Origin: an uncultured delta proteobacterium
GTDB lineage: Bacteria > Myxococcota_A > Polyangia > Polyangiales > Polyangiaceae
Reading direction: 5' to 3'
NCBI GenBank assembly: GCA_963841435.1
Contig: CAWJCS010000006.1
Span: forward strand, 128,001 to 192,000
DNA: 64,000 nucleotides
Shown: positions 39,370 through 62,055 of the stretch, in pieces
How positions within the stretch are numbered: the first letter of the stretch is position 1
How the letters are laid out: each line of letters starts with the position of its first letter
Translations under genes and position numbers: made by a program
The notes under the pieces: model-generated
Told to the model about the DNA's origin: nothing
Database searches by the model: none
Seen by the model: only the letters and a program-made list of their open reading frames with translations

Positions 39370-40835
39370 TTCGTGGTGAGGTAGTTCGAGGAGTACTTGA
39401 AGTGCGGGATCCTCGAAGAGGGTTGTCTACACCTCGTGTGCCGGAGCTGCGGCTACTCGCAGGTCGTGGCCTTGAGCTGCAAGAAGCGCGGCTTCTGCCC
39501 GGGCTGCCTGGGCCGGCGGATGGCCGATACGGCCGTCCACTTGGAGGAGCGCGTGCTGCCGGCCGTGCGAGTGCGCCATTGGATCTGCTCTCTGCCCTGG
39601 GGCCTCAGGGCGCTGCTCGGCTACGACCGGGAGCTGTGCGCCAAGGTCGTGAGCGCGTTCGTGGGCGAGCTCTGCCGCTCGCTGAAGAGGAGAGCAAAGC
39701 GACAGCTCGGGCTCGCGAGCGTCGCGCAAGCGCACACCGGCGCCGTCTGCGCCGTGCAGAGGACGGACGGGGCCCTCCGGCTCAACGTCCATCTCCACGT
39801 GCTCTCGCTCGACGGCGTCTACGTGCGCGACTCCGAGAGCGCCGCGCTCGTGTTCGAAGAGCTCGGCACGCCCAGCCACGCCGAGGTGCTCGACGTGGCC
39901 CGGCACACCGCCGAGCGCGTCGACAGGCTGCTCCGAAAGAGCGGGCGAAGCCTCGAGCGCGAGGGCGACGACGCCGTGCCCGAGCTCGTGCTCGACGAGC
40001 CGGGGCTCGCCTCCTGCTACGCGGCCGCCGCTCAGGGCATCAGCGTGGGCGGCGAGCGAGCGGGACTGCCCCAGCTCAGGCTCGTGTTCGGCACCGGCGC
40101 CGCTGCCGAGAGAGCCGAGCCCCGCGCCGACGACCCGGTCGCCGACCACCGGGGCGTCAACGTGCACGCCAAGCAGTCCGTCGACGGCCGCGACCGACGA
40201 CAGCTCGAAAGACTCTGCCGCTATGTCACGCGGCCTCCGGTTGCACAGGACCGGCTCGCTCGCCTGCCAGACGGCTCGCTCGAGCTCCGCCTCAAGCACC
40301 CGTGGAAGGACGGCACGCGCGCCGTCGTGCTCGAACCGGATGATCTCTTGGTCCGGCTCGTCGCCTCGGTGCCCCCGCCGCGCTGGCATTTACTTCGGTA
40401 CTTTGGCGTCATCTCGAGCCATTCGCGACTGCGCTCAGAAGTGGTCCCGCATACGCCCGCTGATCCAAGTGCCACCGCGCCGCCGCCTGCTCCGGGCGAT
40501 CAGCTCGAGCTCGCGCTCGCCGCCGAGGCGGCTCGCAAGCTGCTCGCGCGCCTTGGGCTCGGTCCGCGTCCGCCGCCGGCACCCAACCCACCGCCGCTCG
40601 GGCAGCTCGCGCTGCCGTTCCCGCGGTGAGCCGGCCCAATCCGGCTTCGCCTTGGCCGAGCGTGCGTGCGCTTGCCGCCCCAAGACCCGAAAAGCCGGCC
40701 CTCTTCCGCTCCCCCTCCTGCTCTTTTGCCCTCTCGCCCCTCTCGCCTCCCCACCGCGGCGGGGTCAGGCGTCACCCACCAAAGCCTCCGCCCGCCCCTC
40801 ACCCTCGTTTTCCCAGTTCGAATGCCCTTGGCGCC
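39370..40835 (+). mobile_element. ISCR/IS91-like element, copy A1 (5'-truncated, amber stop at 39382, 126-nt internal deletion)
   Basis: Near-identical to 60463-62055; ends in the oriIS-like motif TTTTCCCAGTTCGAATGCCCTTGGCGCC. Confidence 0.9.
39397..40629 (+). pseudogene. IS91/ISCR-family transposase, truncated
   Basis: SCKKRGFCPGC zinc motif, NVHLH (HUH), LERLCRYVTRP, HLLRYFGV. Confidence 0.9.
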
Positions 40836-42195
40836 GACCAGGTCACGGAGCTGCGCCAGGCCCTCGAGCGCCGCGGCGGACGTTACGACGAGCATCTCGT
40901 CTTCCGCGATGCGGAGGTGAGCGGCGGGGTTTGGCAGCGCGACGGGCTGCAAGCGCTGCTCACCGCCGTCGAAACCGGGCGCGTGCGTCGTGTCTTTGTC
41001 GAGGACGTGAGCCGCCTCTCACGCGACAAGGAAGATGCCGCGCGACTCGAGAAGACCTTCGACTACCACGGGGTCTCGATCGTCACGCTCGACGGTATGA
41101 CCTACGACGGAAGCGTCGGCTCATCACTCGCGTTCACGTTTCAGAGCGCTGGGGCTGCCCAGTACCTTCGCGACTTGGGCGCCAAGACGCGCCGTGGGTT
41201 GCGCGGCGCGCACCGTGAAGGGAAGAGCACGGGCGGCCGCTGCTACGGCTTCAAGGTCGCGGCTGGGAAGCTCGAGGTCGACGAGACCGAAGCCGCCACC
41301 GTGAAGCTCATCTTCACCCTGTACCTCGAGGGGCATGGCTACGCGGTGATCGCGCAGAAGCTGAACGAGCGCGGCGTACCTGCGCCTCGCAGCCGTCGAC
41401 GCGCGGGGATCGGCTGGATGCACTCGTGCATCCGCGAAATGCTTCGCAACCCGAAGTACGTCGGCGAATTCGCGTTCGGCGTCCGGAAGTGGCAGCGGCA
41501 CCCAACCACGCGCAGGCGCGTCGCGCGCACCAACCATGACGCGGACGTACTGCGAACAAATCGCCCGGAGCTCACGGTCGTCGATCGGCAGACGTGGGAC
41601 GCGGTGCAAGCGCTGCTCGCGAAGCACGCGAAGAACTACAAGGCGCGCGCCGTCCCCCACGGCAGGACGAACTACTTGCTGACCGGCTTGCTTCGCTGCG
41701 GCTGCTGCGGAGCCCCGATGCAGATCATGGGCGGCAGCACCGAGCGCTATTACCGCTGCGTCGCCAACCGAAAGCGCGGGACCTGCTCGAACAGGCTCAG
41801 CGTGCGCGAGGGGCTCACCCGAACGCGCATCCTCGCGGCCGTGAGCGAGGCGCTGGCTACGCCCAAAGCCATCGCCTACGTACGCCAGCGACTCGCCGAG
41901 CGCGCCGGCTCCCTGTCGCGCGACGCCGGCCGCGAGGTAGCCGAGCGCTCCGGGCGCCTTGAGCGCACCGAGGAGCGCGTCCGAGGCCTGATCACCATGC
42001 AGGCCGAGGGCGACCGCTCTCCAATGGTTTCCGAGATGCGGGCCGACCTCGAGGCACAGGCCGCCCAGGACCGCGCCGCAATCGCCGACCTCCGAACCAT
42101 GGCATCGGCGCCCATCCGTCTCCCGCCGGTCGACCTGCTCATCGAGCGCGTGTTCGCGCTCCGCGCTCTCGCCGAGTCCCAGAACGTCCAGAGCG
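40836..42195 (+). pseudogene. Large serine recombinase lacking its N-terminal catalytic motif and its C-terminus
   Basis: DQ...FRDAEVSG..RDGLQALL, EDVSRLSRD, GGRCYG, NPKYVG, YLLTGLLRCGCCGAPM; no YARxS upstream. Confidence 0.85.
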
Positions 42196-43592
42196 CTGCT
42201 GCCGTGCGTGCGCATTCGGCATTGGATCTGTTCCTTGCCCTGGGGCCTCAGAGCCTTGCTCGGCTACGACCGCGAGCTCTGCGCGAAGGTCGTGAGCGCG
42301 TTCGTCGGTGAGCTCAGCCGCTCGCTCAAGAAGAGAGCGAAAGGAGAGTTCGGCCTTGCGAGCGTCGAGGATGCGCACACCGGCGCCGTCTGCACCGTGC
42401 AGAGGACGGACGGGGCTTTGCGACTAAACGTCCATCTTCATGTTCTCGCCCTCGACGGCGTGTACGTCCGCGATACGGAGAGCGGCGCGCTCGTGTTCGA
42501 GGAGCTCGGCACGCCCAGCCACGTGGAGGTACTAAACGTCGCACGCCGCACCGCCGAGCGCATCGACAGGCTGCTCGGAAAGAGCGGCCGGAGCCTCGAG
42601 CGGGAAGGGGACGAGCCCGTGCCCGAGCTCCTCTCCGACGAGCCGAGCCTGGCCTCGTGCTATGCGGCCGCTGCCCAGGGCATCAGCGTGAGCGGCGAGC
42701 GAGCGGGAAAGCCCCAGCTCAGGCTCGTCCTCGGCACTGGCGCCACTGCCGAAGGAGCCGAGCTCAACCCGGACGAGCCCGTGGCCGAGCACCTCGGCGT
42801 CAACATCCACGCCAAGCAGTCGGTCGACGGGCGTGATCGCCGGCAGCTCGAGCGTTTGTGCCGTTACATCACGCGGCCTCCTGTTGCTCAGGAAAGACTC
42901 GAGCGGCTTGCCGACGGCCAGCTCGAGCTCCGACTCAAGCATGCGTGGAAGGACGGCACGCGCGCCGTCGTGCTCGAGCCCGACGACTTGCTGGTCCGGC
43001 TCGTCGCCGCGGTGCCCCCGCCACGCTGGCATTTACTTCGCTACTTCGGCGTCCTCTCGAGCCACTCACGGCTCCGCCGAGAAGTTGTTCCGCACCCGCC
43101 CGCTGATCCGAGTGCTACCGCGCCTCCGCCTGCTCCGGGCGATCAGCTCGAGCTCGACCTCGACGCTGACGCTGACGAGCCTGCTCCGAGAAAAAGATGG
43201 GCCTGGCTGCTCAGACATGTGTTCAAGGCAGATTTGGATATTTGTCCGCGCTGCGGTGGACCGATGCGCTGGCTCGAGGCGGCGGCTACCCGAGAGTCTG
43301 CTCGTGACCTGCTCGCTCGGCTCGGGCTCGGGCCCAGGCCGCCGCCGGCTCCACCCCGCACGCCGCTCGCGCAGCTCACGCTGCCGTTCGCGAGGTGAGC
43401 CGGCTTGCGCTGGTCGCTGCGCCAGGCGAGCGTCCGCGCGTTCTGGGTTCGGGGAGCTCTGGCACCTCAGAGCCTCCTTCCGCCTCGTCCACGACAGCAC
43501 GTCCACCCCATAGGCGTGCGTTCTTACGGCCTCGCCGGCCTCGCCGTGGGCCCCGCCCGGGACCTTTTGCCAGATCGTTTCGCCTAGGCGCC
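42195..43592 (+). mobile_element. ISCR/IS91-like element, diverged variant B (5'-truncated; transposase remnant 42208-43398)
   Basis: Homologous transposase with many substitutions; different 3' non-coding region but conserved end TTTTGCCAGATCGTTTCGCCTAGGCGCC. Confidence 0.9.
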
Positions 43593-44111
43593 GACTCCGT
43601 CGGTGGGGCGTTGATCTTCAAGGGAACGAATTCGACGATGCTCTACGCTCAGCACCTCCACAACGGCGACTCCGTGCAGGGCGACTATTTCGGCGGATCG
43701 CTGGCAGTCGGAGACTTCTTCAGGAAAGCCAGCTACCAGGGTCTCGTGGTCGGGATACCCGGTGAAACGCTCGACGCGCAGCTGCCCGAGGGCGCGATCT
43801 GGATCTACGCGGGTGGCTCGTCAACGATGGCCTCGAAATTCTACAGAAGCCAGAAGAACCTCTACTCGGTGAGCGACACGGACACCATTCTCCCGACCGA
43901 GCAGCGCGACATAGGTTTCGGCACCGCCCTGGTCTCGGGCAACTTCAACGGCGGCGGTGGCGACGAGCTCGTGGTCGGCGCTCCCACCGACGACCCCGGA
44001 CAGGACGGCAGCACCGCCGGCGCGGTGTTCGTCTTCCGATACAACTCCTTCGGCGACGCCGAGAAAATCGACCAGGTGACCACTCGCTACGGTGACAGCA
44101 GCTTCGACTGA
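43593..44111 (+). pseudogene. 3' part of an FG-GAP (integrin-alpha-like) repeat gene
   Basis: GDYFGGSLAVGDF, LVVGIPGE, FGTALVSGNFNG..DELVVGAP, GAVFVF; begins at the element end. Confidence 0.8.
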
Positions 44112-44358
44112 GCTGTTGCTCGATCAATCGTTGCCGGAATCTTGACTGCTCGGACGACAGGCCCTAGCGCAGAGTTGGGTGGGTCGAGATATGCACTGCG
44201 CGCGACGTAGGAGCCAACGTAAACCTCGCGTTTGCCCCAGGAATCGAGAAAGAAGCGACCAAAGCTCTCCAGCTCTCGCTGAGCGCCTGAATAGGAAAGA
44301 AAGCCGTCCTCGGTGCGCGCCGTGGAACCTTGGCGACGGGCGCCCGTAATCCCGAGCT

Positions 44359-44539
44359 CCGGATGATCTCTTGGTCCGGCTCGTCGCCTCGGTGCCCCCG
44401 CCGCGCTGGCATTTACTTCGGTACTTTGGCGTCATCTCGAGCCATTCGCGACTGCGCTCAGAAGTGGTCCCGCATTCGCCCGCTGATCCAAGTGCCACCG
44501 CGCCGCCGCCCCTGCTCCGGGCGATCAGCTCGAGCTCGA
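44359..44539 (+). mobile_element. Internal fragment of the variant A transposase
   Basis: Near-identical to about 50841-51018 (PDDLLVRLVASVPPPRWHLLRYFG...). Confidence 0.9.
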
Positions 44540-44750
44540 CGCGCCCGCTCACTACACCACGAATTCCAGGCTCACTAAAAACAGTCTGCCGTGCCTCCTC
44601 GTCCTCCCTGCTATTTCATTCGCTCCACTACCCCCCTCCTCCCCGTTGGTCTCCCTAGCCGCTTGACGAGGGGTCCGAGCTGGGCGTAAGAAGCTAGGTG
44701 TTGTCGCCCCGGGGAGGCGGAGGGCACGTAACGGCGCAGCGGAGGTCACG

Positions 44751-47429
44751 ATGCGAAGGTGGATGACGCCATTCCTTGGTGCTAAAGGGACCGTGGTGAT
44801 TGCCGTCCTTTCGGCGGGATGCGCTGGACGCGGCGACGATGTGGGGGGGGGTGAGACAACCTCCTACGCGCAGGACGCGATCACGGTTCCCTTCTCGCTT
44901 CCGATCCCCGTAGGTCTTCACCCAGGAAAATTGGTCCTCGGCGCTACAGGCACCATCCGGGTCAACGACCGAGCGGAGATCCTCGTACCATCTTTCGGGA
45001 TCCCGTTCGGGGACATCGCGGCGATGGGGCCAGGCGGCGAGACCAACATCGGTGTCGATGCGCGCGTGAGCAGGATCTGGGCCCGGCACTCGATTCTGTT
45101 CCGTCATCCCGCCAACGTGTCCTTTTACAAGACCTCGGCCACGGTTCAGTCGCAAGGCACGACGATGTTCGCCGATCCAGACGAGAATCGCGAGCAAGTC
45201 ACCATCCGCCAGGACCCCATCTGGACCGCGAGCTTCACGGTTCCGACCAACCAAGCGTATGTCAGCATCGAGCCCGGGTACACGGCCGCCATTACACCAG
45301 GCGACCGCGGGAACTACACCGTCAAGGGCACGCTGACACTCAACGGTGGCGGTACCTACTCCTTCGCAAGCTTCGATCTCGAGCCCACGGGCGTCGTGCA
45401 GCTCTCGGATCCAGCGAACACCACCGTCGTGGTTGGCTCCAACCTGATCCTCCACACGCAACCTGGGGCGCCGCTCTTCGGCGCAAACGGGCTCGTCTTC
45501 GCCTACCTCGGGACGTCGGCGGCGCAGGTCGAAAGAGGCTTCAAGGGGGACTTGTTCTTGGCGCCGCAGGCAGACATCAGCGTCAAGAGTCACTCGTTCG
45601 CGAACTTCTACGGCAAGAACATCACCGTGTTCGAAGGGATCCGCGTCACGGGCGTGCCCGTGCTCGGGCCGAGAGCCGTTGGACTGCTTCTACCCACAGA
45701 GTCGGTGACCGGGCTCGGCGTGATGGGTTCGGGTTTTCCGGGCGGCGACGAGATGGCCAGTGCGCTGCTGCCGCCTGCGTTCGCTCCGCAATGCAGCTCG
45801 GCGACTCCGATCGCCCTCGTGAGCCACCACTCGCGTTCTGTGGTCCGTGCGAATGTTAACCTACCCGGTGGCGCTTTCCTCAACGTTCAGGACATCACGC
45901 CCGGGTTCCCCGGCGATCCTTCCGCGTGTATCCCCACCGTGTTTCCGAATTTCTTTCAGATTGAGCCGTGGCTAGCGCCACTCTATCCGTCCACGGTGCC
46001 GGACCCGAACGCGATCGCGTACTACGGCCCGAGCCTCACAGATAACCTGATCGCGCGGCTCCCCGGAGGTCGAGCTCTGCAAGTCGGGCTCACAAGCCGC
46101 GTTTGCGCTGATCCCCCCGGGCCATTGGCGGCGGGCTGCCCTGCGATGATGTTGGAGGCGGCTGCGTGCAACCCCTTCCTGAGCCCCAACGTGTGCGCAT
46201 ATGGCGGTGGCGTGCCAGCTGACGCGAATACCGACAAGAACTGCCTTTGCGTCGACCCGGAGGGCGACGAAGTCACAGCCGGAGCGGCGTTCACCCCGGT
46301 GTGGGTCTGCCGCACGAGGCGAATTGAAGGGGGGGCACTGGCAGTACGGATGTCATCAGACTGCGGCAGTGGGTGGAACTCGGGCGCGCTGGACTTATAC
46401 CAGCTCGGGGTGACTGCGTTGCCCCCGAACCCGCCCGACGGGCTTCGGAACGTGGATAGACCTGATCTGTACGTCAACCCCTTCGATGATCGCGTCTTCG
46501 TCTCGGCGAATTGGGGCCCCGGTTTCGCGATCACGCAGAACGTCGTCGTCGAGGGCAGACCAAAGAGCGCGATGAACCCCCAGACGATGCAGTGGTCCGT
46601 GTTCCGCAACGATGCGAGTTCGGTGGCCTATGCGCCTCGAGTCATGACCACGGTCCGCGACGACCGTGCCTTACTGTCCCTGTCACCGCGGACGTACGGG
46701 CCGTTCGTCCACTTCGCGAGCGCCTATTGCATCAACGAAAGACCCATGCTCAACGTCCAGACGCCGTTCGGTCCGCGCCAATGGGACCTAGCGGGGACTA
46801 ATGCCGCACCAGAAGCGCTCTGCCGCCAGGTCCCCAAGGGTACCAACGGCATGCCCTTCTTCGGTATTCATTTCGGCCCCAGCATCGCAGCGATATCATC
46901 TTCTCCCCCGCGCTTTCTCATCGCCTATTCGGGAAAGACCGACACGGACTTTGAGCGTACCAACCTGTACGAGGTGACGCTGCGGAGCGCCGGCGGCTAT
47001 GCGGCCGCCCCGGAAATCGAGCCCCTCGCTACCTTCGTAACCGGGGCGCCGCCAAATGGACACGTGATCTTTCCCCAGCTCGTTCAGGCCGACCATCTCG
47101 CAGGGTCTGACCTCGGGTTTGATGAGCCCGTGATCCTGCGCATTGCGTCCGTGGTTGGCGACACGGTCAAAGAACATGCGTTCGGAATCTACTCGGGGCT
47201 GATCGGGCCCTCCCACCTGCTCACGACTTGGTCGCTCGCCTCCGCATTCCCGGGCCAGGTGTGCAGCGACTCCATCGACTTCGAATGCTTCGTAGGCGAC
47301 TACCGCTACGGTTCGCTAATGGACAAGTCGGGCGCCACGCTCCGATTTTTCGTGCCCTGGATTGGCGGCAACCCTGGAGGCGCGGTGAGCACCTCCATTC
47401 AGGCAGCAGTCTTCAATGTTAGCCCGTAA
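44751..47429 (+). CDS. Large hypothetical lipoprotein (892 aa)
   Basis: SAGC lipobox; N-terminal beta-solenoid-like region, Cys-containing middle, FVGDY motif near the C-terminus. Confidence 0.75.
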   Translation: MRRWMTPFLGAKGTVVIAVLSAGCAGRGDDVGGGETTSYAQDAITVPFSLPIPVGLHPGKLVLGATGTIRVNDRAEILVPSFGIPFGDIAAMGPGGETNIGVDARVSRIWARHSILFRHPANVSFYKTSATVQSQGTTMFADPDENREQVTIRQDPIWTASFTVPTNQAYVSIEPGYTAAITPGDRGNYTVKGTLTLNGGGTYSFASFDLEPTGVVQLSDPANTTVVVGSNLILHTQPGAPLFGANGLVFAYLGTSAAQVERGFKGDLFLAPQADISVKSHSFANFYGKNITVFEGIRVTGVPVLGPRAVGLLLPTESVTGLGVMGSGFPGGDEMASALLPPAFAPQCSSATPIALVSHHSRSVVRANVNLPGGAFLNVQDITPGFPGDPSACIPTVFPNFFQIEPWLAPLYPSTVPDPNAIAYYGPSLTDNLIARLPGGRALQVGLTSRVCADPPGPLAAGCPAMMLEAAACNPFLSPNVCAYGGGVPADANTDKNCLCVDPEGDEVTAGAAFTPVWVCRTRRIEGGALAVRMSSDCGSGWNSGALDLYQLGVTALPPNPPDGLRNVDRPDLYVNPFDDRVFVSANWGPGFAITQNVVVEGRPKSAMNPQTMQWSVFRNDASSVAYAPRVMTTVRDDRALLSLSPRTYGPFVHFASAYCINERPMLNVQTPFGPRQWDLAGTNAAPEALCRQVPKGTNGMPFFGIHFGPSIAAISSSPPRFLIAYSGKTDTDFERTNLYEVTLRSAGGYAAAPEIEPLATFVTGAPPNGHVIFPQLVQADHLAGSDLGFDEPVILRIASVVGDTVKEHAFGIYSGLIGPSHLLTTWSLASAFPGQVCSDSIDFECFVGDYRYGSLMDKSGATLRFFVPWIGGNPGGAVSTSIQAAVFNVSP

Positions 47430-48054
47430 GCATTTCGTTTTCGTGGCGGGTATCGGTCTAGGCGGTCTTGCTGGCGCCTCGTGTGCAGGAAAGAGCGATA
47501 GTGCAGCGCACTCAAGCGCAGGCGCGCCCGCTGCGGGGGCTGCGCTCGGTGGAAGCGGCGGCACCCCCGCCGGCGGGGCGGCGAATGGCGGGGCCGCGCT
47601 TGGCGGCGGTTCCGGAGGAGGGCACGGCGGCATTGGGGGCACTGCCGCCGATGGGGGACGCGGCGGCGGAATTGCGGGCGGGGCAGCGCAGGCGGGTAAC
47701 GGAGGCACCGGGCTCGTCGTGTGCGTCGGGGGCATCTGCGCAGGCTCCCCGAACGGGGGTGCGGCCGGAGAGTCCGCCGGCGGCGCGGGCGAGGGAAGTG
47801 GCGCCGCGGGCACGACCGGAGGAGGGGCTGCCTGGAATGGGTTGCCCGAGCAGTACGACTGCGTTCAGACGAGCGTGACCGGCTGTGCCAGCAACACGGT
47901 GGAGTACTGCTGTCCTGGCATGAGCTTGCGGAATTTCGATGCGCTCGAGCAGGCAGGTTGTGGTTGCCAGCTACCGCCGTCGCAGGTGCAACAGTGCATG
48001 GCAGACGCGTCCGACGGTGGGCTGCTGTATGGCTACCCGTGCTGCTGCGAGTAA
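47416..48054 (+). CDS. Cys-rich lipoprotein, paralog 1 (ends GYPCCCE)
   Basis: ASCAGKS lipobox region, Gly linker, GLPEQYDC..C..YCC..CGC..PS..C..GYPCCC. Confidence 0.75.
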   Translation: MLARKHFVFVAGIGLGGLAGASCAGKSDSAAHSSAGAPAAGAALGGSGGTPAGGAANGGAALGGGSGGGHGGIGGTAADGGRGGGIAGGAAQAGNGGTGLVVCVGGICAGSPNGGAAGESAGGAGEGSGAAGTTGGGAAWNGLPEQYDCVQTSVTGCASNTVEYCCPGMSLRNFDALEQAGCGCQLPPSQVQQCMADASDGGLLYGYPCCCE

Positions 48055-48665: not shown

Positions 48666-48763
48666 AGCGGAGGGCGGGGGAGCGGGAGCTGGCACTCGGA
48701 GCTAGGTCGCCATCTTGGCGCTCCGCGCGGGCGGGGCTGAGCGGCGGCAGGCGCGTCTTGGTC

Positions 48764-48960: not shown

Positions 48961-49037
48961 AATGGGGTGAACGGCCTATCCGAGTCCGAACGAGGCTAGG
49001 AAGGGTCCGCTCCCGGCTGCCTCGCGAATGAAATCGA

Positions 49038-49703: not shown

Positions 49704-49706
49704 GCC

Positions 49707-52587: not shown

Positions 52588-52600
52588 GCTGATGTGGCCT

Positions 52601-53494
52601 TCACTCTGGGTAGGTTCGCTCATGCAATGAAGATGCGGCACGGGCGTCGAACCGCATTGGGCGATGTTGGCGTGCTCGTTCCGAGGGGACGAAGCTTCGC
52701 GCGTAGGCGCCCGGCGTGATGCCGACGATGCGTCGAAAGTGGCGGTGGAGCTGGCTTTCGTCGTAAAAACCGACACTTTGCGCGGCAGCGGCCGCGCGCA
52801 CGCCGTGGCGGAGCAGCTCCCTCGCGCGGGCAACGCGCAGGTGAGTCAAGTACTCGTAGGGAGGCAGCCCGACCTCGGAGCGGAAGGCGCGCACGAGGTG
52901 GAACTTGTCGAGCCGGGCGTGCTCGGCGAGATCGTCGAGGGTTACCCTGGCGGTGAGCGCTTCGTGCAGGAACGCGCGTGCGCGGCGTACGGCGAGCGGC
53001 GCACGGCCGCTCGAGGGTGCAGTCGTGCAGAGGATCTCGCTCAACGTTTCGGTCACCCGTGTGGTGCGCTCGAGCTCGGTGGCGTCGGGTCGCACGAGCG
53101 CGTCGTGCATGGCGAACGCGAGCTCGGTCGCTCGCTCGCCCTGGGCAAAGCCGGGCGCCTTGAAGTGCGGCGGCCCGCGCAAGCCCAGCGCGTCGGCTGC
53201 GGCGGCGACGAGCTCGCTCGCGAACGCCGCTCCCTGGAGCGTGAAGGGGGCGTGGACCCTGAGGGCGCGGTGGACCTCGCCGGGCTCTTGCAGCTTGAGC
53301 GAGCTGGCAAAGAGCCTACGCTCCCGCCCCCGGTACCAGCCGTCGAAGGCGCCCTCGTACACCACCACCACGGCGAAGTGCTCGGCGTAGGTGACCTTGG
53401 TGCGATCCTCCCGCTCGAGGCGAAACATCCCCGTCACCGCGGAGGTGTCGGGCCGCCAGAAGCGGGTCCGCCGGCGATCGTCGGTGGAGGGCAC
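52601..53494 (-). CDS. AraC-family transcriptional regulator
   Basis: FHLVRAFRSEVGLPPYEY, GFYDESQLHRHFRRIVGITPGAY. Confidence 0.95.
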   Translation of the reverse strand: MPSTDDRRRTRFWRPDTSAVTGMFRLEREDRTKVTYAEHFAVVVVYEGAFDGWYRGRERRLFASSLKLQEPGEVHRALRVHAPFTLQGAAFASELVAAAADALGLRGPPHFKAPGFAQGERATELAFAMHDALVRPDATELERTTRVTETLSEILCTTAPSSGRAPLAVRRARAFLHEALTARVTLDDLAEHARLDKFHLVRAFRSEVGLPPYEYLTHLRVARARELLRHGVRAAAAAQSVGFYDESQLHRHFRRIVGITPGAYARSFVPSERARQHRPMRFDARAASSLHERTYPE

Positions 53495-53557: not shown

Positions 53558-55876
53558 TCAGGCCACCGCGCGTCGCTGGTACAGGTACTTCTGAAAGTCG
53601 GCAAAGACGCGGCCGATTTCGTCGGGCCGGCCCAGGTCGGCCACCGCGTCCGCGATGGAGTTCTGATAACGGAGCCGCAAAAGGGGCGTCAGCTTCTCCT
53701 GGTCGAGCTCCTCGACCCCGACGCTCACGTAGTGCGACAGGACGAAGTCGAGAAAGGCCTGCTGCTTGCTGTCGAAGTTCGCGCTGATGTCGAGCTTCGC
53801 AGTGATCGCTCGCTGTTCGCGCGTCACCGGCGTGAGGGCGTACGCGACGTTGGCGAGCACGTCGAACAGGTCGCTTTTCTCAGCGTCGATGATCTTCTGC
53901 ATCTCGGCGAGCTGCTCGCTGCCAAAGCCCTTTTCCGCGAGACCCTCGAGGAGCTTCTTCCTGGTGCCTGGCGCGCTCCACAGCGCGCGCAGCTCGGCTT
54001 CGTCCTTGAAAAAGTCGGGCAGCTTGCCGAACAGCATTTCCATGAACTGCTGGGCGGACATCGGCGTTCCGTCGGGGTGCCAGAACGTCGTGCACATCAT
54101 GTGCTGGATGACGCGCGCCTTGCCGTCGGCGAGCTTCACTTTGACCTTCCCCCGCTTCGGATACTCCGACTTTTCCGGGTCTGCCACCGCGAGCTCCCCA
54201 CCGGGTGCTGCCGGGCGCTTGGGCTCGGGCTCGAGCGGCTCGCCGTCCCACTCCGGATCGCTGAAGTGCTGGTGGGCCTTCACGAAGTCATAAATCGTGA
54301 AGTAATCCTTGCCATCGTAGAGCCGCGTCCCGCGCCCGATGATCTGCTTGAACTCGATCATCGAGTTGACGGGGCGCATCAGTACGATGTTGCGGATGTT
54401 GCGAGCATCCACGCCGGTGGAGAGCTTCTGCGAGGTCGTGAGGATGGTGGGAATGGTCTTCTCGTTGTCCTGAAAATCACGCAGGTGCTGCTCGCCAAGC
54501 TCGCCATCGTCGGCCGTCACCCGCTGGCAATAGTTGGGGTCGGAGCTCGCCTTGGCCTGGTTCACGAGATCGCGGACGGCCAGGGCGTGGTCCTGCGTGG
54601 CGCAGAAAACGAGCGTCTTTTGGCGCTGGTCGATCTGATCCATGAGGACCTGCACCCGGTGCGCTTCGCGTTCCTTGATCTCGATGATCTTGTTGAAGTC
54701 CTTCTCCTGGTAGCGCTTGCCGCTTTCGACTTCACCCTCGATGAGCTTGTCGTCTGGCGTGTAGACGTACTCGTCGAGCGTCGTCGAGATCTGCTTCACC
54801 TTGAAGGGCGTCAGAAAGCCGTCGTTGATGCCCTGCTTCAGCGAATAGACGTACACGGGCTCGCCGAAGTAAGCGTACGTGTCCACGTTGTCCTTGCGCT
54901 TGGGTGTCGCGGTGAGACCCAGTTGCACCGCTGGGGCGAAGTACTCCAGGATCCCGCGCCAGTTGCTCTCGTCGTTCGCGCCGCCGCGGTGGCACTCGTC
55001 GATGATGATGATGTCGAAAAAATCGGGCGCGTACTCGCCGAAATAGGGCGATGGCCGCCCGTCCTTCGGCGGCCCGCTCATGAACGTCTGGAAGATCGTG
55101 AAGAAGAGGCTCCCGTTCTTGGGCACCTTGCCCTTCTTGCGGATGTCCGCCGGATCAATGCGCACGAGCGCATCTTCGGCAAACGCGGAGAAGGCGTTGT
55201 AAGCCTGATTCGCTAGGATGTTGCGGTCCGCGAGGAACAGAATGCGCGGCCGGCGCGTGGGCTCCCGGCTCAGACTCCAGCGGCTTTGGAACAGCTTCCA
55301 GGCGATCTGAAACGCGATGAAGGTCTTACCGGTGCCGGTCGCGAGGGTCAGCAGCATGCGCTGGCGGCCATCCGCGACCGCCTCCAGCACGCGTTCGACG
55401 GCGATGTCTTGGTAGTAACGGCTCGGGTGAGAGCCGCCCCTGTCCTCGAACGGTACGGCAGCGAAGCGATCGCGCCAGGCGTTGGCCTCAGCGAACGTCT
55501 CGGCCCACAGCTCGTTGGGTGTGGGGTAGCGCGACAGCTCGCCTTCACGGCCGTTGCCCATGTCGACGCCGTAGATGCCCTGGCCGTTCGTGGCATACGC
55601 GTAGCGAAGCTCCAGCTTGCCGGCGTAGTTCTTGGCTTGGGCCAGCCCCTCCGTGAGCGGCTTGTCCCAGGCCTTGGCCTCGGCAACGGCGAGCTTGCGG
55701 TTGCGGTACACGAGCACGTAGTCCGCGACCACCGGCTTGCCACGCCGGCCGAGCCCTTCGATGCGGCCGGGCGCGATCGGAAACTCGCGCAAAATCTTAC
55801 TGCCCTCGACGACGCCCCAGCCCGCCGCCGCCAATGCGGGGTCGACGTGCTCGGCTCTCGTCTCGGCTTCGTTCAT
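53558..55876 (-). CDS. hsdR: Type I restriction endonuclease subunit R (EcoAI/EcoEI-like)
   Basis: MNEAETR, ADY..AEAK nuclease, ATGTGKT, DECHR, LTATP, QIIGRGTR. Confidence 0.95.
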   Translation of the reverse strand: MNEAETRAEHVDPALAAAGWGVVEGSKILREFPIAPGRIEGLGRRGKPVVADYVLVYRNRKLAVAEAKAWDKPLTEGLAQAKNYAGKLELRYAYATNGQGIYGVDMGNGREGELSRYPTPNELWAETFAEANAWRDRFAAVPFEDRGGSHPSRYYQDIAVERVLEAVADGRQRMLLTLATGTGKTFIAFQIAWKLFQSRWSLSREPTRRPRILFLADRNILANQAYNAFSAFAEDALVRIDPADIRKKGKVPKNGSLFFTIFQTFMSGPPKDGRPSPYFGEYAPDFFDIIIIDECHRGGANDESNWRGILEYFAPAVQLGLTATPKRKDNVDTYAYFGEPVYVYSLKQGINDGFLTPFKVKQISTTLDEYVYTPDDKLIEGEVESGKRYQEKDFNKIIEIKEREAHRVQVLMDQIDQRQKTLVFCATQDHALAVRDLVNQAKASSDPNYCQRVTADDGELGEQHLRDFQDNEKTIPTILTTSQKLSTGVDARNIRNIVLMRPVNSMIEFKQIIGRGTRLYDGKDYFTIYDFVKAHQHFSDPEWDGEPLEPEPKRPAAPGGELAVADPEKSEYPKRGKVKVKLADGKARVIQHMMCTTFWHPDGTPMSAQQFMEMLFGKLPDFFKDEAELRALWSAPGTRKKLLEGLAEKGFGSEQLAEMQKIIDAEKSDLFDVLANVAYALTPVTREQRAITAKLDISANFDSKQQAFLDFVLSHYVSVGVEELDQEKLTPLLRLRYQNSIADAVADLGRPDEIGRVFADFQKYLYQRRAVA

Positions 55877-56916
55877 GGCTTGGGGGGCTTCGACTTCCTC
55901 GGCTTCGGCAGCTTCTCGAGCTGAGCTTCGATCTGCTTCAACGTCTCGAGCTCGCCCGCGCTTTCCAGCTCGCCTCTGCGGCGAGCCTCAAACTCCTCGT
56001 ATTCCCGCTCCGCGAGCGCGTCCGCCTGCTCGCGGCTGACCTTCCCAGCATCAGGCAAAATGGCGCGCTCGTTCAAGCGCAGAAAGTCGTCGAGCCGCGT
56101 TTGCCAGGTTTCGAGGAAGATTTGCTTCCGGCGGAGCGCCTGATCCTCGGCGAAATCCAGGAACATCACGACGATCCGGTTCAGCTGGCGGATCTCGTCT
56201 TCGCGCAGGTAGTTCTTCGCAATGGTCACATCGCGCTTGCGAACCACGCCGCCCTTCCACGTGGTCAGCCCCATGTTGGGCTGGTTGGCGTCGGCGCGTT
56301 CGGCGATCAGCTCGGGCGCCGTCTTGCCCGTGGCGGCAACATGCAGCTTGTTCTGCACCGTCTGGAAAAAGACCTGAGCCTCCGGGTCGGACGGCGAATA
56401 GTCCGCGGCAAGCGCCAGGATTTCGCGAACCCGCACGTACACGCGTTGCTCGCTCGAGCGGATCTCGCGGATGCGCTCGAGCAGCTCGTCGAAGTAGTCG
56501 GTCAGGCCGCTGGTGAGCGGACTCTTGAGCCGCTCGTCGTCCATGGTGAACCCCTTCACCAGGTACTCGCTGAGCCTGGCGGTGGCCCACTGGCGGAATT
56601 GCGTGCCGCGCCTGGACTTCACCCGGTAGCCGACCGCGATGATCGCCTCCAGGTTGTAGTGCTGCGTTTCGTAGCCCTTGCCGTCCGACGCAGTTATCCG
56701 GAATTTCCGGATAACTGCTTCCTCTACCAATTCGCCCTCCTCGAACACGTTCTGCAGGTGCTCGTTGATGGTGCGAACGTCCTTCTGAAAGAGCTCCGCC
56801 ATCAGCTTTTGCGTGAGCCAGATCGTCTCGTTCTCGAACCGGCACTGGATGCGCGTCCGCCCATCCTCTGTTTGGTAGAGGACGATGCTGCTTTCCGGGG
56901 CGGTGGGGTCCGGCAT
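55873..56916 (-). CDS. rhuM: Virulence protein RhuM-family protein
   Basis: IVLYQTEDG, WLTQKLMAELF, YNLEAIIAVGYRVKS.RGTQFRQWAT, IAKNYL. Confidence 0.9.
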   Translation of the reverse strand: MPDPTAPESSIVLYQTEDGRTRIQCRFENETIWLTQKLMAELFQKDVRTINEHLQNVFEEGELVEEAVIRKFRITASDGKGYETQHYNLEAIIAVGYRVKSRRGTQFRQWATARLSEYLVKGFTMDDERLKSPLTSGLTDYFDELLERIREIRSSEQRVYVRVREILALAADYSPSDPEAQVFFQTVQNKLHVAATGKTAPELIAERADANQPNMGLTTWKGGVVRKRDVTIAKNYLREDEIRQLNRIVVMFLDFAEDQALRRKQIFLETWQTRLDDFLRLNERAILPDAGKVSREQADALAEREYEEFEARRRGELESAGELETLKQIEAQLEKLPKPRKSKPPKP

Positions 56917-56935
56917 CGGGGGGCGACTAACGCGA

Positions 56936-58219
56936 CTAGAGCAGGCCGGTGAAGGCTTGGTGGAGGAGTGACTTCTTCAGTGCTGCGAGCGCGGTGAGCT
57001 TTTGTTGGTAGATGTTTTCGAGGCGTTGAGTTTCGGCCATCACCGTCTGAAGCCGAGAGACGACCGCTCGTTGCTCACCCAGCGTTGGTAGGGGTATCGC
57101 TATTTCTTTGATCTTTCCCAGGCTCAGGTTCTTTTGGCGGACGCCACGGCGCTCAAGAAGCAATCGGGGTTTGTCCGCATTGATCGCATTGAGAACAAAT
57201 TCAACATCAAGCTTCGCATTTGGCCGAATTCCAGCAATGGCTTGATTGAAGGCGCCATCGCGATCAAGGATAGACATCTTTAAGGCCGCAGTGTCATACA
57301 TACCGACGAGCAATGAGCCTTTCGGAAAGAGCTTTGCATTGGAGTTGGTTAGACCTGTGCTGGTTAGCCTTCTCTCGGGCTCGACCGTAAAGGTGGAATT
57401 TAACTCACCTGATGAATACCAGGGGATGTCACCACCCCAAAACTCCTTTTGCGAGACGAGGGGTGTGCCGCCGCTCTGAATGTCGGCAACATCGCCCAAC
57501 TTTTGCTCTGCCCACCCGTTGCGGCGTTGGGTGAAGACGGATCGGAGGTGGCTTTCAAACAGGGCGCGGGCGTTTTGGAGGTTCTTTTCGGCGTTGGCTT
57601 GGGCGGTGGCGAGGCCGGCAAACGCTTCGTCGAGCACACCTACGATCCGCTGCTGTTCGGGAAGCGGGGGGAGACAAATGTGGAATGCCTTTGCCTCGGG
57701 ATAGTAAATAGTCTGATGAACTGAGCCGCTCGCGAAGCGAAGTAGGTCGTCACCCTCGGCAACAAAGACATACTTGAGAAATTCGGGTTCGAGATCGTTG
57801 CCGCAGATCCAGTTCACAAAATCCTGACTCGTCGTCATGGGGCGACCCATCACAACGACATATCCAACCGAAGCAGTCCGCGAAAGGCAGACCGTACCCT
57901 CGGGAAGGACGCGCGCAGATGAATTCTGGGTGCCAAGCTCACTGATCGTCTCGCCCGTTTGTTGGATTCGCGCACCATCGTTCGCCCGTGCATCGGCGAT
58001 CCCAATCCACGGAATGCCACCACCCCAATAGTCAGGATGCTGCCTGCTTGGCGTGTGACCGGATTCGAGCGTGGCTACCGAAGACAAGGCGGTCCACCGC
58101 CAGCCGGTCGGAGCGGGGGTTGCTGGCATTCCAACCGCCAACGCAAGCTTGGGCGGAATGCACCGGGTCGTCGCCTGCCGGCCTCCGGTTCTGCTTGTTC
58201 GAGCGGGGGCTGTAGTCAC
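56936..58219 (-). CDS. hsdS: Type I restriction-modification specificity subunit
   Basis: Two TRDs (SGHTPS and SGGTP), PPLPEQQRIV, LKKSLLHQAFTG; visibly lower GC. Confidence 0.95.
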   Translation of the reverse strand: MTTAPARTSRTGGRQATTRCIPPKLALAVGMPATPAPTGWRWTALSSVATLESGHTPSRQHPDYWGGGIPWIGIADARANDGARIQQTGETISELGTQNSSARVLPEGTVCLSRTASVGYVVVMGRPMTTSQDFVNWICGNDLEPEFLKYVFVAEGDDLLRFASGSVHQTIYYPEAKAFHICLPPLPEQQRIVGVLDEAFAGLATAQANAEKNLQNARALFESHLRSVFTQRRNGWAEQKLGDVADIQSGGTPLVSQKEFWGGDIPWYSSGELNSTFTVEPERRLTSTGLTNSNAKLFPKGSLLVGMYDTAALKMSILDRDGAFNQAIAGIRPNAKLDVEFVLNAINADKPRLLLERRGVRQKNLSLGKIKEIAIPLPTLGEQRAVVSRLQTVMAETQRLENIYQQKLTALAALKKSLLHQAFTGLL

Positions 58220-59679
58220 ACCAGCGCTCTGATGTTCTTCAGCACAGCCGCGCTCTGGGCGTCCAGAGAACCGATTTCTTCCATGATTTGCTTCGGCGTA
58301 CGATGCACAACTTCCTCGCCGACGTTGGGGTTCTTCACGGAAAGATCGAATGTCGTCGGGTCAATCGCCTTCGCATCCACGCTCCAGCTCTTGGGCGAGT
58401 TGGCAAACGTCTTTTGCAGCGTGATGAACTCGGCGAGATCGGCGTCGTTGAGCGGGTTGGTCTTGCCCATGCTGCGGCCCGGATCGAGCTGGTAGAACCA
58501 GACTTTGCGGGTGGGCGCGCCCTTTTCGAAGAAGAGCACGACAGTCTTCACGCCCGCGCCCTGGAACGTGCCGCTCGGGCAGTCGAGCACGGTGTGTAGG
58601 TTGCAGCTCTCGAGCAGCAGCTTGCGCAGGCTGACCGAGGCGTTGTCGGTGTTGGAGAGGAAGGTGTTCTTGATCACTACGCCGCCGCGGCCGCCGGCTT
58701 TCAGGATCTTGATGAAGTGCTGCAGGAATAGGAACGCGGTTTCGCCGGTGCGGATGGGAAAGTTTTGCTGCACTTCCGGGCGCTCTTTGCCGCCGAAGGG
58801 CGGGTTGGCCAGGACGACGTGGTAGCGGTCCTTCTCCTGAATGTCGGCCAGGTTTTCGGTGAGCGTGTTGGTGTGGATGATGTTCGGCGCTTCGATCCCG
58901 TGCAGGATCATGTTCATGACGCCGATCACGTAGGCGAGGGACTTCTTTTCCTTGCCGTAGAAGGTGCGCTCTTGCAGCGCGCGGTCCTGAGCGGTGGTGC
59001 GTTTAGGGTTGGCGTGTTGGAGGTAGTCGAAGGCCTCGCACAAGAAGCCTGCGGAGCCGACGGCACCGTCGTAGATGCGCTCGCCGAGCTCGGGGCGCAC
59101 GACTTGGATGATGGCGCGCTCCAGCGGGCGAGGTGTGTAGTACTCGCCGCCGTTGCGCCCGGCGTTGCCCATGTTCTTGATCTTGGCTTCGTACAGGTGG
59201 GAGAGCTCGTGCTTCTCGACCTGCGAGCCGAAGCGCAGCTCGTCGATGTGATCAATCACCTCGCGCAGGTTGTAGCCGCTGGTGATGCGGTTTTTGATCT
59301 CGCTGAAGATCTCCCCAATCTTGTATTCGATGGTGTTCGGCCCAGTCGCGCGCTGCTTGAACCCCATCAGGTAGGGAAAAAGCTTGCCGTTGACGAAGGC
59401 GGTCAGATCATCGCCGGAGAGGGCGACGTTGTGGTCGATCTGACCGTCCTTGGTCTTCGGCGCCGCCCAGGTTGGCCAGCGATACGCTTTGTCGAGGATG
59501 AAGTCGTACTTCCGCCCGTCGAGCTTCGCCTCGGTGGCCTTGTCGGCTTCGAGAGCGTCGAGGTACTTTAGAAAGAGCAGCCAGGAGCTCTGCTCGGTGT
59601 AGTCGAGCTCGCTAGTGCAGCCCGCGTCCTTCCAGAGGACATCGTTGACGTTCTTGAAAACCTGCTCAAACACGGTCAC
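58216..59679 (-). CDS. hsdM: Type I restriction-modification N6-methyltransferase
   Basis: GEYYTPR, IYDGAVGSAGFL, LANPPFG. Confidence 0.95.
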   Translation of the reverse strand: MTVFEQVFKNVNDVLWKDAGCTSELDYTEQSSWLLFLKYLDALEADKATEAKLDGRKYDFILDKAYRWPTWAAPKTKDGQIDHNVALSGDDLTAFVNGKLFPYLMGFKQRATGPNTIEYKIGEIFSEIKNRITSGYNLREVIDHIDELRFGSQVEKHELSHLYEAKIKNMGNAGRNGGEYYTPRPLERAIIQVVRPELGERIYDGAVGSAGFLCEAFDYLQHANPKRTTAQDRALQERTFYGKEKKSLAYVIGVMNMILHGIEAPNIIHTNTLTENLADIQEKDRYHVVLANPPFGGKERPEVQQNFPIRTGETAFLFLQHFIKILKAGGRGGVVIKNTFLSNTDNASVSLRKLLLESCNLHTVLDCPSGTFQGAGVKTVVLFFEKGAPTRKVWFYQLDPGRSMGKTNPLNDADLAEFITLQKTFANSPKSWSVDAKAIDPTTFDLSVKNPNVGEEVVHRTPKQIMEEIGSLDAQSAAVLKNIRALV

Positions 59680-60252
59680 ACATCACTTCCGTGGCCTTTG
59701 GCGCGTCCAGTCGCATCGCGACGCGGAAACTTATCAGGATTTGGGCGGGGCCGAGGTTGACTCCCGAAACCTCGAGCCGGTGCATGTGGCGCTTGGCGCC
59801 TGGGTCTCGGGCCGTCTTCCCTGGCGCTGCCCGCCTTGGCTCAGGGCGGGTCGGTGAACGGGTCGCTCGGTGACGGCGACGGGGCGTCGTCTGCGTCGCG
59901 CGAGGGCGCTGATTCCGTGGCGGTCTCATGCGCGTGTACAGGTCCCGCGGCGGGCGAGCCCGACTTGCCGAGCACGGCGGCGACGTTCTCCGCGATCTCG
60001 TCGAGATCCGACACGCTTGGCGTCTGATGCTTTCGACGAGCTTCGACTTGGACATGGTGCTTGGCATGGGTGAGTCTCCGGGGGTGCGCTTTGAAGTAGG
60101 GAAGTGCATCACGTCGGGAGGTTGCGTGTAAAGAGCACGGGGAGCGCACATTGCGTGGTGACGACGCTCACGTGCACCACGCCCCCGTTCCGACGGTGCA
60201 GGGCGGCCAGGGTGTTGCGCCATGGCCGCCAGCTGGCTGTGCTGATGAGAAG

Positions 60253-62055
60253 CGCCGAAACGTGCGGCGTGAGGGCCGGGCATGCACCTTGTGACGCCGC
60301 TCGGCTGTGGGCCACCCGGCGCACGACCTCGAGCAGCACGGCACGCGCCGCCCCGACGGCTACGCCCGCCGCCGGCCGGAAGACACGGTGCTCTACCAGA
60401 CCGTGGCCGAGCGCTGGCCCCTGTTTCGCGAGCAGATGGAGCAGCAAGGCGGGTTGCCGAAGTTCGTGGTGAGGTAGTTCGAGGAGTACTTGAAGTGCGG
60501 GATCCTCGAAGAGGGTTGTCTACACCTCGTGTGCCGGAGCTGCGGCTACTCGCAGGTCGTGGCCTTGAGCTGCAAGAAGCGCGGCTTCTGCCCGGGCTGC
60601 CTGGGCCGGCGGATGGCCGATACGGCCGTCCACTTGGAGGAGCGCGTGCTGCCGGCCGTGCGAGTGCGCCATTGGATTCTGCTCTCTGCCCTGGGGCCTC
60701 AGGGCGCTGCTCGGCTACGACCGGGAGCTGTGCGCCAAGGTCGTGAGCGCGTTCGTGGGCGAGCTCTGCCGCTCGCTGAAGAGGAGAGCAAAGCGACAGC
60801 TCGGGCTCGCGAGCGTCGCGCAAGCGCACACCGGCGCCGTCTGCGCCGTGCAGAGGACGGACGGGGCCCTCCGGCTCAACGTCCATCTCCACGTGCTCTC
60901 GCTCGACGGCGTCTACGTGCGCGACTCCGAGAGCGCCGCGCTCGTGTTCGAAGAGCTCGGCACGCCCAGCCACGCCGAGGTGCTCGACGTGGCCCGGCAC
61001 ACCGCCGAGCGCGTTGACAGGCTGCTCCGAAAGAGCGGGCGAAGCCTCGAGCGCGAGGGCGACGACGCCGTGCCCGAGCTCGTGCTCGACGAGCCGGGGC
61101 TCGCCTCCTGCTACGCGGCCGCCGCTCAGGGCATCAGCGTGGGCGGCGAGCGAGCGGGACTGCCCCAGCTCAGGCTCGTGTTCGGCACCGGCGCCGCTGC
61201 CGAGAGAGCCGAGCCCCGCGCCGACGACCCGGTCGCCGACCACCGGGGCGTCAACGTGCACGCCAAGCAGTCCGTCGACGGCCGCGACCGACGACAGCTC
61301 GAAAGACTCTGCCGCTATGTCACGCGGCCTCCGGTTGCACAGGACCGGCTCGCTCGCCTGCCAGACGGCTCGCTCGAGCTCCGCCTCAAGCACCCGTGGA
61401 AGGACGGCACGCGCGCCGTCGTGCTCGAACCGGATGATCTCTTGGTCCGGCTCGTCGCCTCGGTGCCCCCGCCGCGCTGGCATTTACTTCGGTACTTTGG
61501 CGTCATCTCGAGCCATTCGCGACTGCGCTCAGAAGTGGTCCCGCATTCGCCCGCTGATCCAAGTGCCACCGCGCCGCCGCCTGCTCCGGGCGATCAGCTC
61601 GAGCTCGCGCTCGATGCCGACAGTGACGAGCCCGCTCCGAGAAAGAGATGGGCCTGGCTTCTCAAGCATGTGTTCGCGGCAGATTTGGATACTTGCCCGC
61701 GCTGTTCGGGGCCGATGCGTTGGATGGAGGCAGCGGCCACCGCCGAGGCGGCTCGCAAGCTGCTCGCGCGCCTTGGGCTCGGTCCGCGTCCGCCGCCGGC
61801 ACCCAACCCACCGCCGCTCGGGCAGCTCGCGCTGCCGTTCCCGCGGTGAGCCGGCCCAATCCGGCTTCGCCTTGGCCGAGCGTGCGTGCGCTTGCCGCCC
61901 CAAGACCCGAAAAGCCGGCCCTCTTCCGCTCCCCCTCCTGCTCTTTTGCCCTCTCGCCCCTCTCGCCTCCCCACCGCGGCGGGGTCAGGCGTCACCCACC
62001 AAAGCCTCCGCCCGCCCCTCACCCTCGTTTTCCCAGTTCGAATGCCCTTGGCGCC
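60253..62055 (+). mobile_element. ISCR/IS91-like element, copy A3 (longest; terIS boundary uncertain)
   Basis: Full-length transposase homology and oriIS-like end; candidate left-end hairpin CGCCG-AAACGTG-CGGCG at 60253-60269. Confidence 0.85.
60307..61849 (+). pseudogene. Full-length ISCR-type transposase with in-frame TAG (60475) and +1 frameshift (about 60677)
   Basis: YARRRPEDTVLYQTV..GLPKFVVR*FEEYLKCG; extra T relative to copy A1 (tggattctg vs tggatctg). Confidence 0.9.

Follow-up and report, generated by a model that had tools for sequence, protein, structure and literature searches.

How does a row of related insertion elements, each ending in the same short block, come to lie beside a row of broken genes? 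The question is raised by a 64,000-nt stretch of DNA (here called the window; G000:C6:128001-192000) from an uncultured delta proteobacterium of the Polyangiaceae, whose genome (G000) comprises 7.78 Mb with 68.7% GC in six contigs of 0.4-1.9 Mb. Contigs of this genome are written C2-C6, and L-numbers (e.g. L010, L017) denote the loci that were compared, mostly in related metagenome-assembled genomes (MAGs). A preliminary description of the window, made from its sequence alone, had seen ISCR-like rolling-circle elements with a common end, an apparent CGCC target and a gene-capturing mosaic. We read the region as an island of ISCR-type single-tyrosine HUH elements that form arrays anchored at the ori end and that arose by imprecisely terminated rolling-circle transposition, and we give this reading a probability of roughly 80%. 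The region holds new members of the known ISCR kind, in several and mostly decayed variants; it is not a case of a new mechanism.

The family assignment is based on the transposases and on the ends of the elements. The Pfam domain Y2_Tnp (PF04986) was found on all four window copies that carry transposase sequence (A, B, D and E; E-values 3e-23 to 8e-23, 82-83 bits, cut-off 20.9). The zinc domain Zn_Tnp_IS91 (PF14319) scored 41 bits on copy A, where both domains lie on the open reading frame 39397-40629, and had eight matches in the genome, among them copy E and the only two intact transposase genes of the genome (C4:550687-552231, 514 aa; C5:365604-367160, 518 aa). For the two intact proteins ISCR_clade_Ia (NF052416) was the best NCBIfam model with 260 and 249 bits; its cut-off of 925 was not reached and, judged by these scores, the transposases fall outside the named ISCR_clade_Ia. 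The model transpos_IS91 (NF033538) gave 94 and 95 bits and stayed under its cut-off of 125. A tblastn search against plasmids revealed 35-36% identity across 89% of the length to the transposases of ISCR1 and ISVsa3 (ISCR2). In a four-sequence alignment with ISCR1 and ISCR2, H194 and H196 of the VHLHVL motif are invariant, as are E333-R334-L335-C336-R337-Y338-I339-x-R341-P342. IS91 has a two-tyrosine motif; four residues before Y338 the proteins studied here have an R. The single-tyrosine motif LERLCRY of the preliminary description is indeed present and shared with ISCR1 and ISCR2, and its assignment of the elements to ISCR-like rolling-circle elements of the IS91 family is borne out by the Pfam domains, the best NCBIfam model, the common motifs and the terminal block.

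This terminal block, TTTTSCCAGWTCG-N5-CCTWGGCGCC, was found with 0 mismatches at 40808-40835(+), 43565-43592(+), 48764-48791(-), 51439-51466(+) and 62028-62055(+), and 100 dinucleotide-preserving shuffles gave 0 matches, so that all five ends proposed before could be confirmed. The same is true for the three sequence variants: copies A, D and E are of one type (E-type; mutual identity 99.5-99.8%), B is of a second type (B-type; about 83% nucleotide identity to A, D and E) and C of a third. As described, the 3' regions diverge between the variants, and the ~200 nt past the stop codon cannot be aligned, neither by BLAST nor by alignment, save for the terminal block. The element end is found 193-212 nt past the stop codon, compared to 232 nt in ISCR1, which agrees with the oriIS expected about 200 nt past the stop, and the terminal block aligns with the ends of ISCR1 and ISCR2. 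On these sequence grounds, the conserved TTTT(C/G)CCAG(T/A)TCG-N5-CCT(T/A)GGCGC is the elements' own oriIS end, and it is at such an oriIS-type block that the transposase would nick. A covarying stem was not seen by eye in the terminal block. A scan of the genome with a loose regular expression gave 44 matches, of which 37 were kept as ori ends. The seven others were removed by eye; six were poor and one, C2:539960, is an apparent real end with a 1-nt insertion. The 37 ori ends form islands on five contigs. Two duplications near ori ends should be mentioned in this connection: in a V-type element, 24 nt (CCCGCCCAACGGCCCCGCCGTTTT) stand twice in tandem immediately before the terminal block, at L002 (C5:367290-367372) and at C5:370750-370832, and in L023, from a related MAG, the terminal block itself is duplicated over 24 nt.

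The features of the window are listed in Table 1. Of the element copies, three are 5'-truncated and one is full-length with a broken gene; in addition, there are a tail and an internal fragment. Copy A, formerly regarded as a whole element, begins inside the zinc-domain coding region and is therefore 5'-truncated; it has a TAG nonsense codon at 39382-39384 whose counterpart is common to E, and its 126-nt deletion is also present in C5:877352. Copy B is 99.6% identical to the full-length B-type copy C4:550233-552426, and both B and D have lost the N-terminal domain of the transposase. The start of copy E was formerly placed at 60463, and comparison with other copies moves it to 60169; a TAG at 60475-60477 and a 1-nt frameshift at 60677 interrupt its transposase gene. 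The four window copies with transposase sequence are all defective and represent non-autonomous relics. The catalytic domain, in other words, is present in the four copies named in the preliminary description, and an intact gene in none. Tails of the copy C type were found three times elsewhere in the genome. The segment in front of D meets the truncated 5' end of D via 4-5 nt of microhomology.

Table 1 Elements, gene fragments and neighbouring features of the window (positions are those of the window)
Feature	Position	Strand	Description
Copy A	39370-40834	+	E-type, 5'-truncated: last 1591 nt of the reference less a 126-nt internal deletion; ori end intact
Serine recombinase fragment	40835-42189	+	between the ori end of A and truncated B; Resolvase profile positions 1-16 missing
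Copy B	42190-43591	+	B-type, 5'-truncated to the last 1404 nt; ori end intact
FG-GAP fragment and downstream DNA	43592-44358	+	residues 351-523 of 523 (C-terminal third)
Internal E-type fragment	44359-44538	+	spans 624 to 447 nt from the ori end
Copy C	48765-48841	-	solo 77-nt ori tail, third variant (GTTTCACC type)
B-type 5' untranslated left-region-like fragments	49030-49284	+	96% to C4:550292-550446
Segment before D	49296-50222	+	99.9% identical to C5:898295-899225
Copy D	50223-51465	+	E-type, 5'-truncated to the last 1243 nt, no Zn domain; ori end intact
DUF1801-like N-terminal fragment (presumed)	51466-51708	-	reads toward the ori end of D, cut after ...DPAVVE
Type I restriction-modification operon, complete	53558-59679	-	hsdR 53558-55876, RhuM-family 55873-56916, hsdS 56936-58219, hsdM 58216-59679
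Copy E	60169-62054	+	full-length E-type, 1886 nt; ori end 62028-62054
PaaK-like N-terminal fragment (presumed)	62055-62327	-	~90 codons, reads toward the ori end of E, cut after ...VEPGKV

The left ends, E-type at 60169 and B-type at C4:550233, are each defined by two different flanks only. The first 72 nt of E recur alone at C5:869961-870032 with a different left flank, and the E-type copy C5:882239 begins 60 nt further in than E. The putative terIS end of the E-type has CACG and hairpins (the putative hairpin region of E is 60169-60235), that of the B-type has CAGA and a 6-bp hairpin. With two flanks each, the + strand left end of the E-type folds better than shuffles (z = -2.3, 3/200 shuffles), and that of the B-type is not significant. 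As judged by inspection of one full-length copy, E, the left flank ends in ...GACGACGCT and the right flank starts with CACCTTGCC, without a direct repeat, and the two ends of the element are not inverted repeats of each other. In addition, two B-type pieces on different contigs, C5:896869-897894 (-) and C4:544798-545967 (+), complement each other exactly at a point 1168 nt from the ori end, which suggests that they are one copy split by a large rearrangement or insertion.

Are the genes beside the ori ends genes into which the elements had inserted? It had been stated that each of the four transposase-bearing copies abuts a different gene cut within its reading frame. Gene fragments indeed adjoin the four + strand ends. 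For the FG-GAP fragment the origin is apparent: 43592-44358 repeats C5:862452-863219 with 99.4% identity, and at the latter site the FG-GAP gene is intact and precedes the same element fragment at the same junction as in the window, that is, the left junction of the fragment 44359-44538 recurs at C5:863220. The two fragments behind D and E, which we take to be DUF1801-like and PaaK-like, respectively, each have an intact paralogue in the genome. A close homologue of the recombinase was not found by tblastn of the genome and a DNA search of 40 relatives (nothing above 65% identity), and its only paralogue is distant (40-44% identity, C3:754285-754678). The genes left of copy A (34470-39209) do not contain a recombinase N-terminus; no search was aimed at the N-terminal piece in the window. 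The remainders of the PaaK-like, DUF1801-like and FG-GAP genes were not detected in the 64-kb window by tblastn with the intact paralogues, and a search of the 8 kb upstream of the filled junction in five paralogue pairs did not reveal the left flank of the paralogue. Native DNA is contiguous on one side only of each junction examined and, since the left flanks were not found, these are not simple insertions into genes. The gene pieces are orphan fragments for which a split by simple insertion is not demonstrable, and for annotation this means that the recombinase, FG-GAP, DUF1801-like and PaaK-like pieces are not functional genes. CGACCA(G/A)G is common to the flanks of C and A, and a recombinase cut by both elements was considered as the source; this was rejected, because the flank of C does not continue as recombinase.

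Inspection of the whole genome revealed a gradient from the 5' to the 3' end of the elements. There are eight matches to the zinc domain, 19 to the Y2 domain and 37 ori ends; six pieces reach the 5' end, three of them in full-length copies. The copies also tend to point in one direction. Where an element piece follows an ori end within 10 kb downstream (25 ori ends), it has the same orientation in 19 cases (p = 0.007, a value that overstates the bias because copies within an island are not independent), and within 3 kb in 6/6; in the relatives, seven ori ends have element DNA up to 1.5 kb downstream, and at six of them it has the same orientation. At C4:562490/562579 and C5:367372/367496 a tail of another variant, 89 or 124 nt long and with its own ori end, stands directly behind an ori end. 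Short tails exactly at a resident ori end were also found in the relatives, at L010, L017 and L023. In related MAGs, the length common to near-identical copies is 2009, 2960 or 4228 nt, and each of these stretches stops at the ori end. Moreover, relatives have, directly behind a resident ori end, a unit in which 63 foreign nt are joined to the final 1117 nt of the element; L010 contains two such units and L017 one, the latter with a 10-nt terminal duplication. It should be mentioned that L009, a contig binned as Vicinamibacterales, shares 2960 nt (99.97%), stopping at the ori end, with L028 on a contig of a 'delta proteobacterium' MAG; this is either a recent transfer or a binning error.

In the accepted scheme for IS91 and ISCR elements, as outlined in the sources cited, replication begins with a nick made by the transposase at oriIS and passes through the gene to terIS, and missed termination carries upstream DNA along (PMC13181058, PMC6218425). 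This scheme explains why the ori end is fixed. Applied to the present elements, replication would run from oriIS back through the transposase gene and would terminate imprecisely. An early stop would give 5'-truncated copies and, with them, the copy gradient; a late stop would result in one-ended transposition with upstream DNA in tow. If the nick site of a resident ori end were a frequent point of attachment for the products, head-to-tail arrays would be formed, with tails of one variant behind another, and the order in an array would be ori end, orphan gene fragment, next truncated element. In the window, the recombinase fragment and B may represent one such transposed unit, and the FG-GAP fragment with the element piece at 44359 another, whose source is still intact on C5. 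That the mosaic was made by one-ended or prematurely terminated transposition is plausible but unproven; it would fit the one-sided contiguity of native DNA, the copy gradient, the variable left boundaries with a fixed ori end in the relatives and the weak preference for GC-rich flanks (+1 to +4) described below.

Several observations weigh against imprecisely terminated transposition. The FG-GAP unit has no ori end of its own in either of its two copies. Several left junctions have microhomologies of 4-12 nt, which could equally mean illegitimate recombination independent of the transposase. The halves of an element split at one point are found on separate contigs (C5:896869-897518, C4:544798-545967), from which it follows that general rearrangement acts here as well. 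The tandem units of L010 and L017 may go back to shared descent or unequal crossing-over, and DNA folds of both strands at the ori ends were no better than shuffles (z from -0.3 to +1.5). Ordinary recombination among repeats has certainly played a part as well. It could then be argued that there was nothing but normal full-length insertion followed by deletions, inversions and recombination among repeats, and no one-ended or premature transposition at all; besides the split halves and the microhomologies, the existence of 3'-truncated pieces (44359-44538, C5:882239-883005) and a gene-conversion-like patch of 12 substitutions in C5:877352 speak for such a history. We consider it improbable as the full explanation: decay should have removed both ends about equally, yet 37 ori ends are left compared to eight zinc-domain regions and six 5'-end pieces, the ori junctions are precise to the base, and the near-identical copies of the relatives have one ori end and three left extents.

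The precision of the ori junctions leads to the question of where the element stops. The preliminary description had taken the terminal CGCC as a target, a GC-adapted counterpart of the tetranucleotides GTTC and CTTG of IS91, with each element inserted beside CGCC in a different gene. All five window ends do read GGCGCC, and the target tetranucleotide of the IS91 family adjoins oriIS in the account cited (PMC13181058). Genome-wide, the final C is seen at 22 of the 37 ends, with T in its place at 7, A at 4 and G at 4; the fourth base is thus different from C in 15/37, even among 99.5%-identical copies. Five B-type copies of 99.5-100% identity have C, T, A, T and C at this position, and seven ends of one 99-100% identical element in related MAGs have A, C, C, T, C, T and T. 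Uninterrupted paralogous sites were looked for by BLAST of 250 nt of right flank from each of the 37 ends against the genome. The homology of the flank starts right after GGCGC at C4:552426, C4:562490, C5:367372 and window copy B, where two Cs make the exact junction point ambiguous, and one base later (after GGCGCC) at C2:39332. At the position of CGCC, the five uninterrupted paralogous sites have ATCA, GCGA, ACGG, GTCC and GGTGGT. The collection of ends, flanks and uninterrupted sites, which had been suggested as a check, thus served to place the junction, and CGCC was present at none of the five sites.

A comparison with ISCR1 points in the same direction. The sequences of ISCR1 and ISCR2 were taken from plasmid records and the right boundary of ISCR1 was set empirically with a 301-nt probe. 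The probe matches 2060 plasmid records; among the matches listed, the alignment ends at query position 156 in most cases and at 157-160 in some. The boundary of ISCR1 is ...TTCCTATACCC (also written ...GGTTTATACTTCCTATACCC), and in a multiple alignment it falls into the same column as the end of the TTCG(A/T)(A/T)T..CCT(T/A)GGCGC block of the present elements, whose CGC stands opposite an ACC that is internal to the element at the ISCR1 end. From the variable next base, the uninterrupted paralogues and the ISCR1 boundary column it follows, as far as sequence comparison can tell, that the element ends with GGCGC; of the letters CGCC, the first three are element sequence and the last C alone is flank. 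The element end then reads ...CCTTGGCGC, and the next base, N, is flank. A CGCC target is therefore very improbable. The restoration of A-D-Q in the recombinase and of V-V-E-A in DUF1801, which had been put forward in its support, needs just one flank base, and the DUF1801 paralogue has an E after VVE; if the junction is set behind GGCGC, ...VVE and ...GKV are encoded by the flanks as they stand.

Some junctions fit this boundary less well. C5:1624 has 17 unmatched bases at the junction, and C5:913703, in a ~100-nt repeat family, has GGCGCC before the shared flank, as a CGCC target would have it, with the family member C5:836234 lacking it. In one paralogue comparison the C at +1 is missing in the uninterrupted copy, so the junction may sit one base further to the right. 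The 'empty sites' compared are paralogues, one of them just 83% identical, and not true pre-insertion alleles. The ~100-nt repeat family itself (92-98% identity) was found at C5:836240, 838713, 878095, 888360, 901921 and 913601, and two of its members stand directly or about 110 nt behind ISCR-type ori ends.

If CGCC is not the target, is there any preference in the flanks? A fixed tetranucleotide was not found among the 37 flanks. The base at +1 is a pyrimidine in 29/37 (p = 4e-4) and a C in 22/37, compared to a background of 34% (p = 0.0016), an excess that a CGCC target would also produce. The dinucleotide CG occupies +1/+2 in 14 of the 37 flanks (background 15.8%, p = 1e-3), and CGNC, a pattern picked post hoc, is found in ten (background 5.8%, p = 3e-5). 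At the related loci, the pyrimidine at +1 was seen again (21/29, p = 0.012); C alone is not enriched there. By reading, the first base of the 5'-truncated copies is a pyrimidine in 14/18, with boundaries that are uncertain by a few bases. Of the GC-adapted target specificity proposed before, a weak bias for GC-rich flanks is left; the tetranucleotide is not, and the register is a different one (+1 to +4). In the IS91 family, similar tetranucleotides are described to be cleaved at the target and at terIS (PMC13181058). A weak preference common to target and termination sites would fit this kind of cleavage.

It is tempting to go one step further and to speculate that the nick at a resident oriIS is the preferred landing site, that termination is loose in both directions, that units of captured fragment plus truncated element are pasted one after the other, and that the weak CG-rich bias (pyrimidine at +1, CGNC) is a true, degenerate cleavage preference of both target and termination sites. 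This we regard as a tentative proposal, somewhat more doubtful than probable. If it were true, the arrays would come to contain copies of chromosomal gene pieces, with the source genes left intact, and the genome would be a natural record of ISCR transposition.

That the junctions are merely chimeric joins made across repeats during assembly of a metagenome-derived genome is hardly credible: the related records are nearly all MAGs, one run containing the stretch is labelled soil metagenome, the CheckM-type contamination is 2.7%, and none of the junctions was bridged by the short contigs of that one soil-metagenome run (34% of sampled words present; pieces listed 166-678 nt), which also counts against our own reading, yet six contigs of 0.4-1.9 Mb imply long reads, junctions of these kinds were found repeatedly, with other partners, on five contigs of the genome and in independent MAGs, and they lie at one exact base and not within repeats.

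How do these elements compare with those known? With ISCR1 and ISCR2 (ISVsa3) they share a HUH transposase of ~510 aa with an N-terminal zinc domain and the same HxH and LERLCRYIxRP motifs, as well as an oriIS-type block that follows the stop codon by 190-235 nt and whose boundary occupies the same column of the alignment. 5'-truncated copies are frequent in ISCR1 and ISCR2, too. In contrast, the protein identity is about 35-37% only, the terminal hexamer is ATACCC there and the end is GGCGC-rich here, the host is a high-GC, soil, Polyangiaceae-like bacterium, resistance genes and an integron context are absent, and many copies of several variants are present within one genome. A further trait of ISCR1 and ISCR2 that is seen here is variable DNA adjoining the oriIS side, as far as described in the work cited (PMC6218425). 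Like IS91, IS801 and IS1294, the elements have an oriIS end and, distinct from it, a putative terIS end, and no target duplication is seen at the copy inspected; unlike these, which have a defined tetranucleotide (CTTG, GTTC, GTCC), they show a degenerate bias. For the IS91 family, the account cited reads the target beside oriIS and has one-ended transposition follow from a failure of termination (PMC13181058). The ISCR28 'sandwich' (Yuan et al., as cited in PMC12772301) is similar in that a remnant with an extra oriIS stands upstream of a second element; there, according to the same source, the DNA between successive oriIS ends is captured (PMC12772301). The DNA sandwiched in the window, however, consists of orphan fragments of housekeeping-type genes and not of resistance genes. 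Helitrons are described to capture gene fragments through imprecise termination and to have truncated copies as well (PMC4778049), but their capture reaches beyond the 3' terminator and they encode a Rep-helicase, whereas no helicase is present here.

In clinical Proteobacteria ISCR elements are suspected to carry resistance genes, which is chiefly what they are known for, and to demonstrate their movement has been difficult; an account of 2018 described experimental evidence for ISCR transposition as absent (PMC6218425). The genome of a soil myxobacterium, with several variants and many defective copies of near identity, provides independent data at the level of sequence: an ISCR end, no strict target tetranucleotide and an exact ori end with a varying left boundary. 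Such a record, in which ori ends are exact, left ends vary and arrays stand behind ori ends, is of some interest for the mobility of ISCR elements. The relatives found in public genomes are almost all Polyangiaceae or Myxococcales MAGs, and within the order 24 of 41 genomes (the source genome counted) had a match at E <= 1e-10. The source genome was the richest of the 41 with 35 matches, a rank that was probably helped by its contiguity. A literature search for IS91 or ISCR in myxobacteria gave no paper naming either among the matches listed, which does not imply absence from print.

The other features of the window are of minor importance for the question raised. The restriction-modification operon, placed between the ori end of D and the left end of E, has a GC of 0.55-0.65 compared to 0.69 of the genome, and AraC-family and aldo-keto reductase genes are found at 51709-53494. 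Between two convergent element pieces there is a 4.2-kb segment (44539-48764) with a GC of 0.63-0.64 at 44-47 kb and of 0.67-0.69 beyond; its 892-aa open reading frame (44751-47429) had no Pfam match and no usable Protein Atlas match. A long open frame on the - strand, 62302-63999, has repeats of ~40 aa with ...TFGFAP.YVQTWWTG.SC... and no Pfam match, and within it, at 62335-62744, are 44-nt direct repeats at a spacing of 111-129 nt. Left of copy A, a 1216-aa EGF/LRR/NosD-like repeat protein (34470-38120) and a glycosyl hydrolase family 16 gene (38286-39209) are encoded on the - strand.

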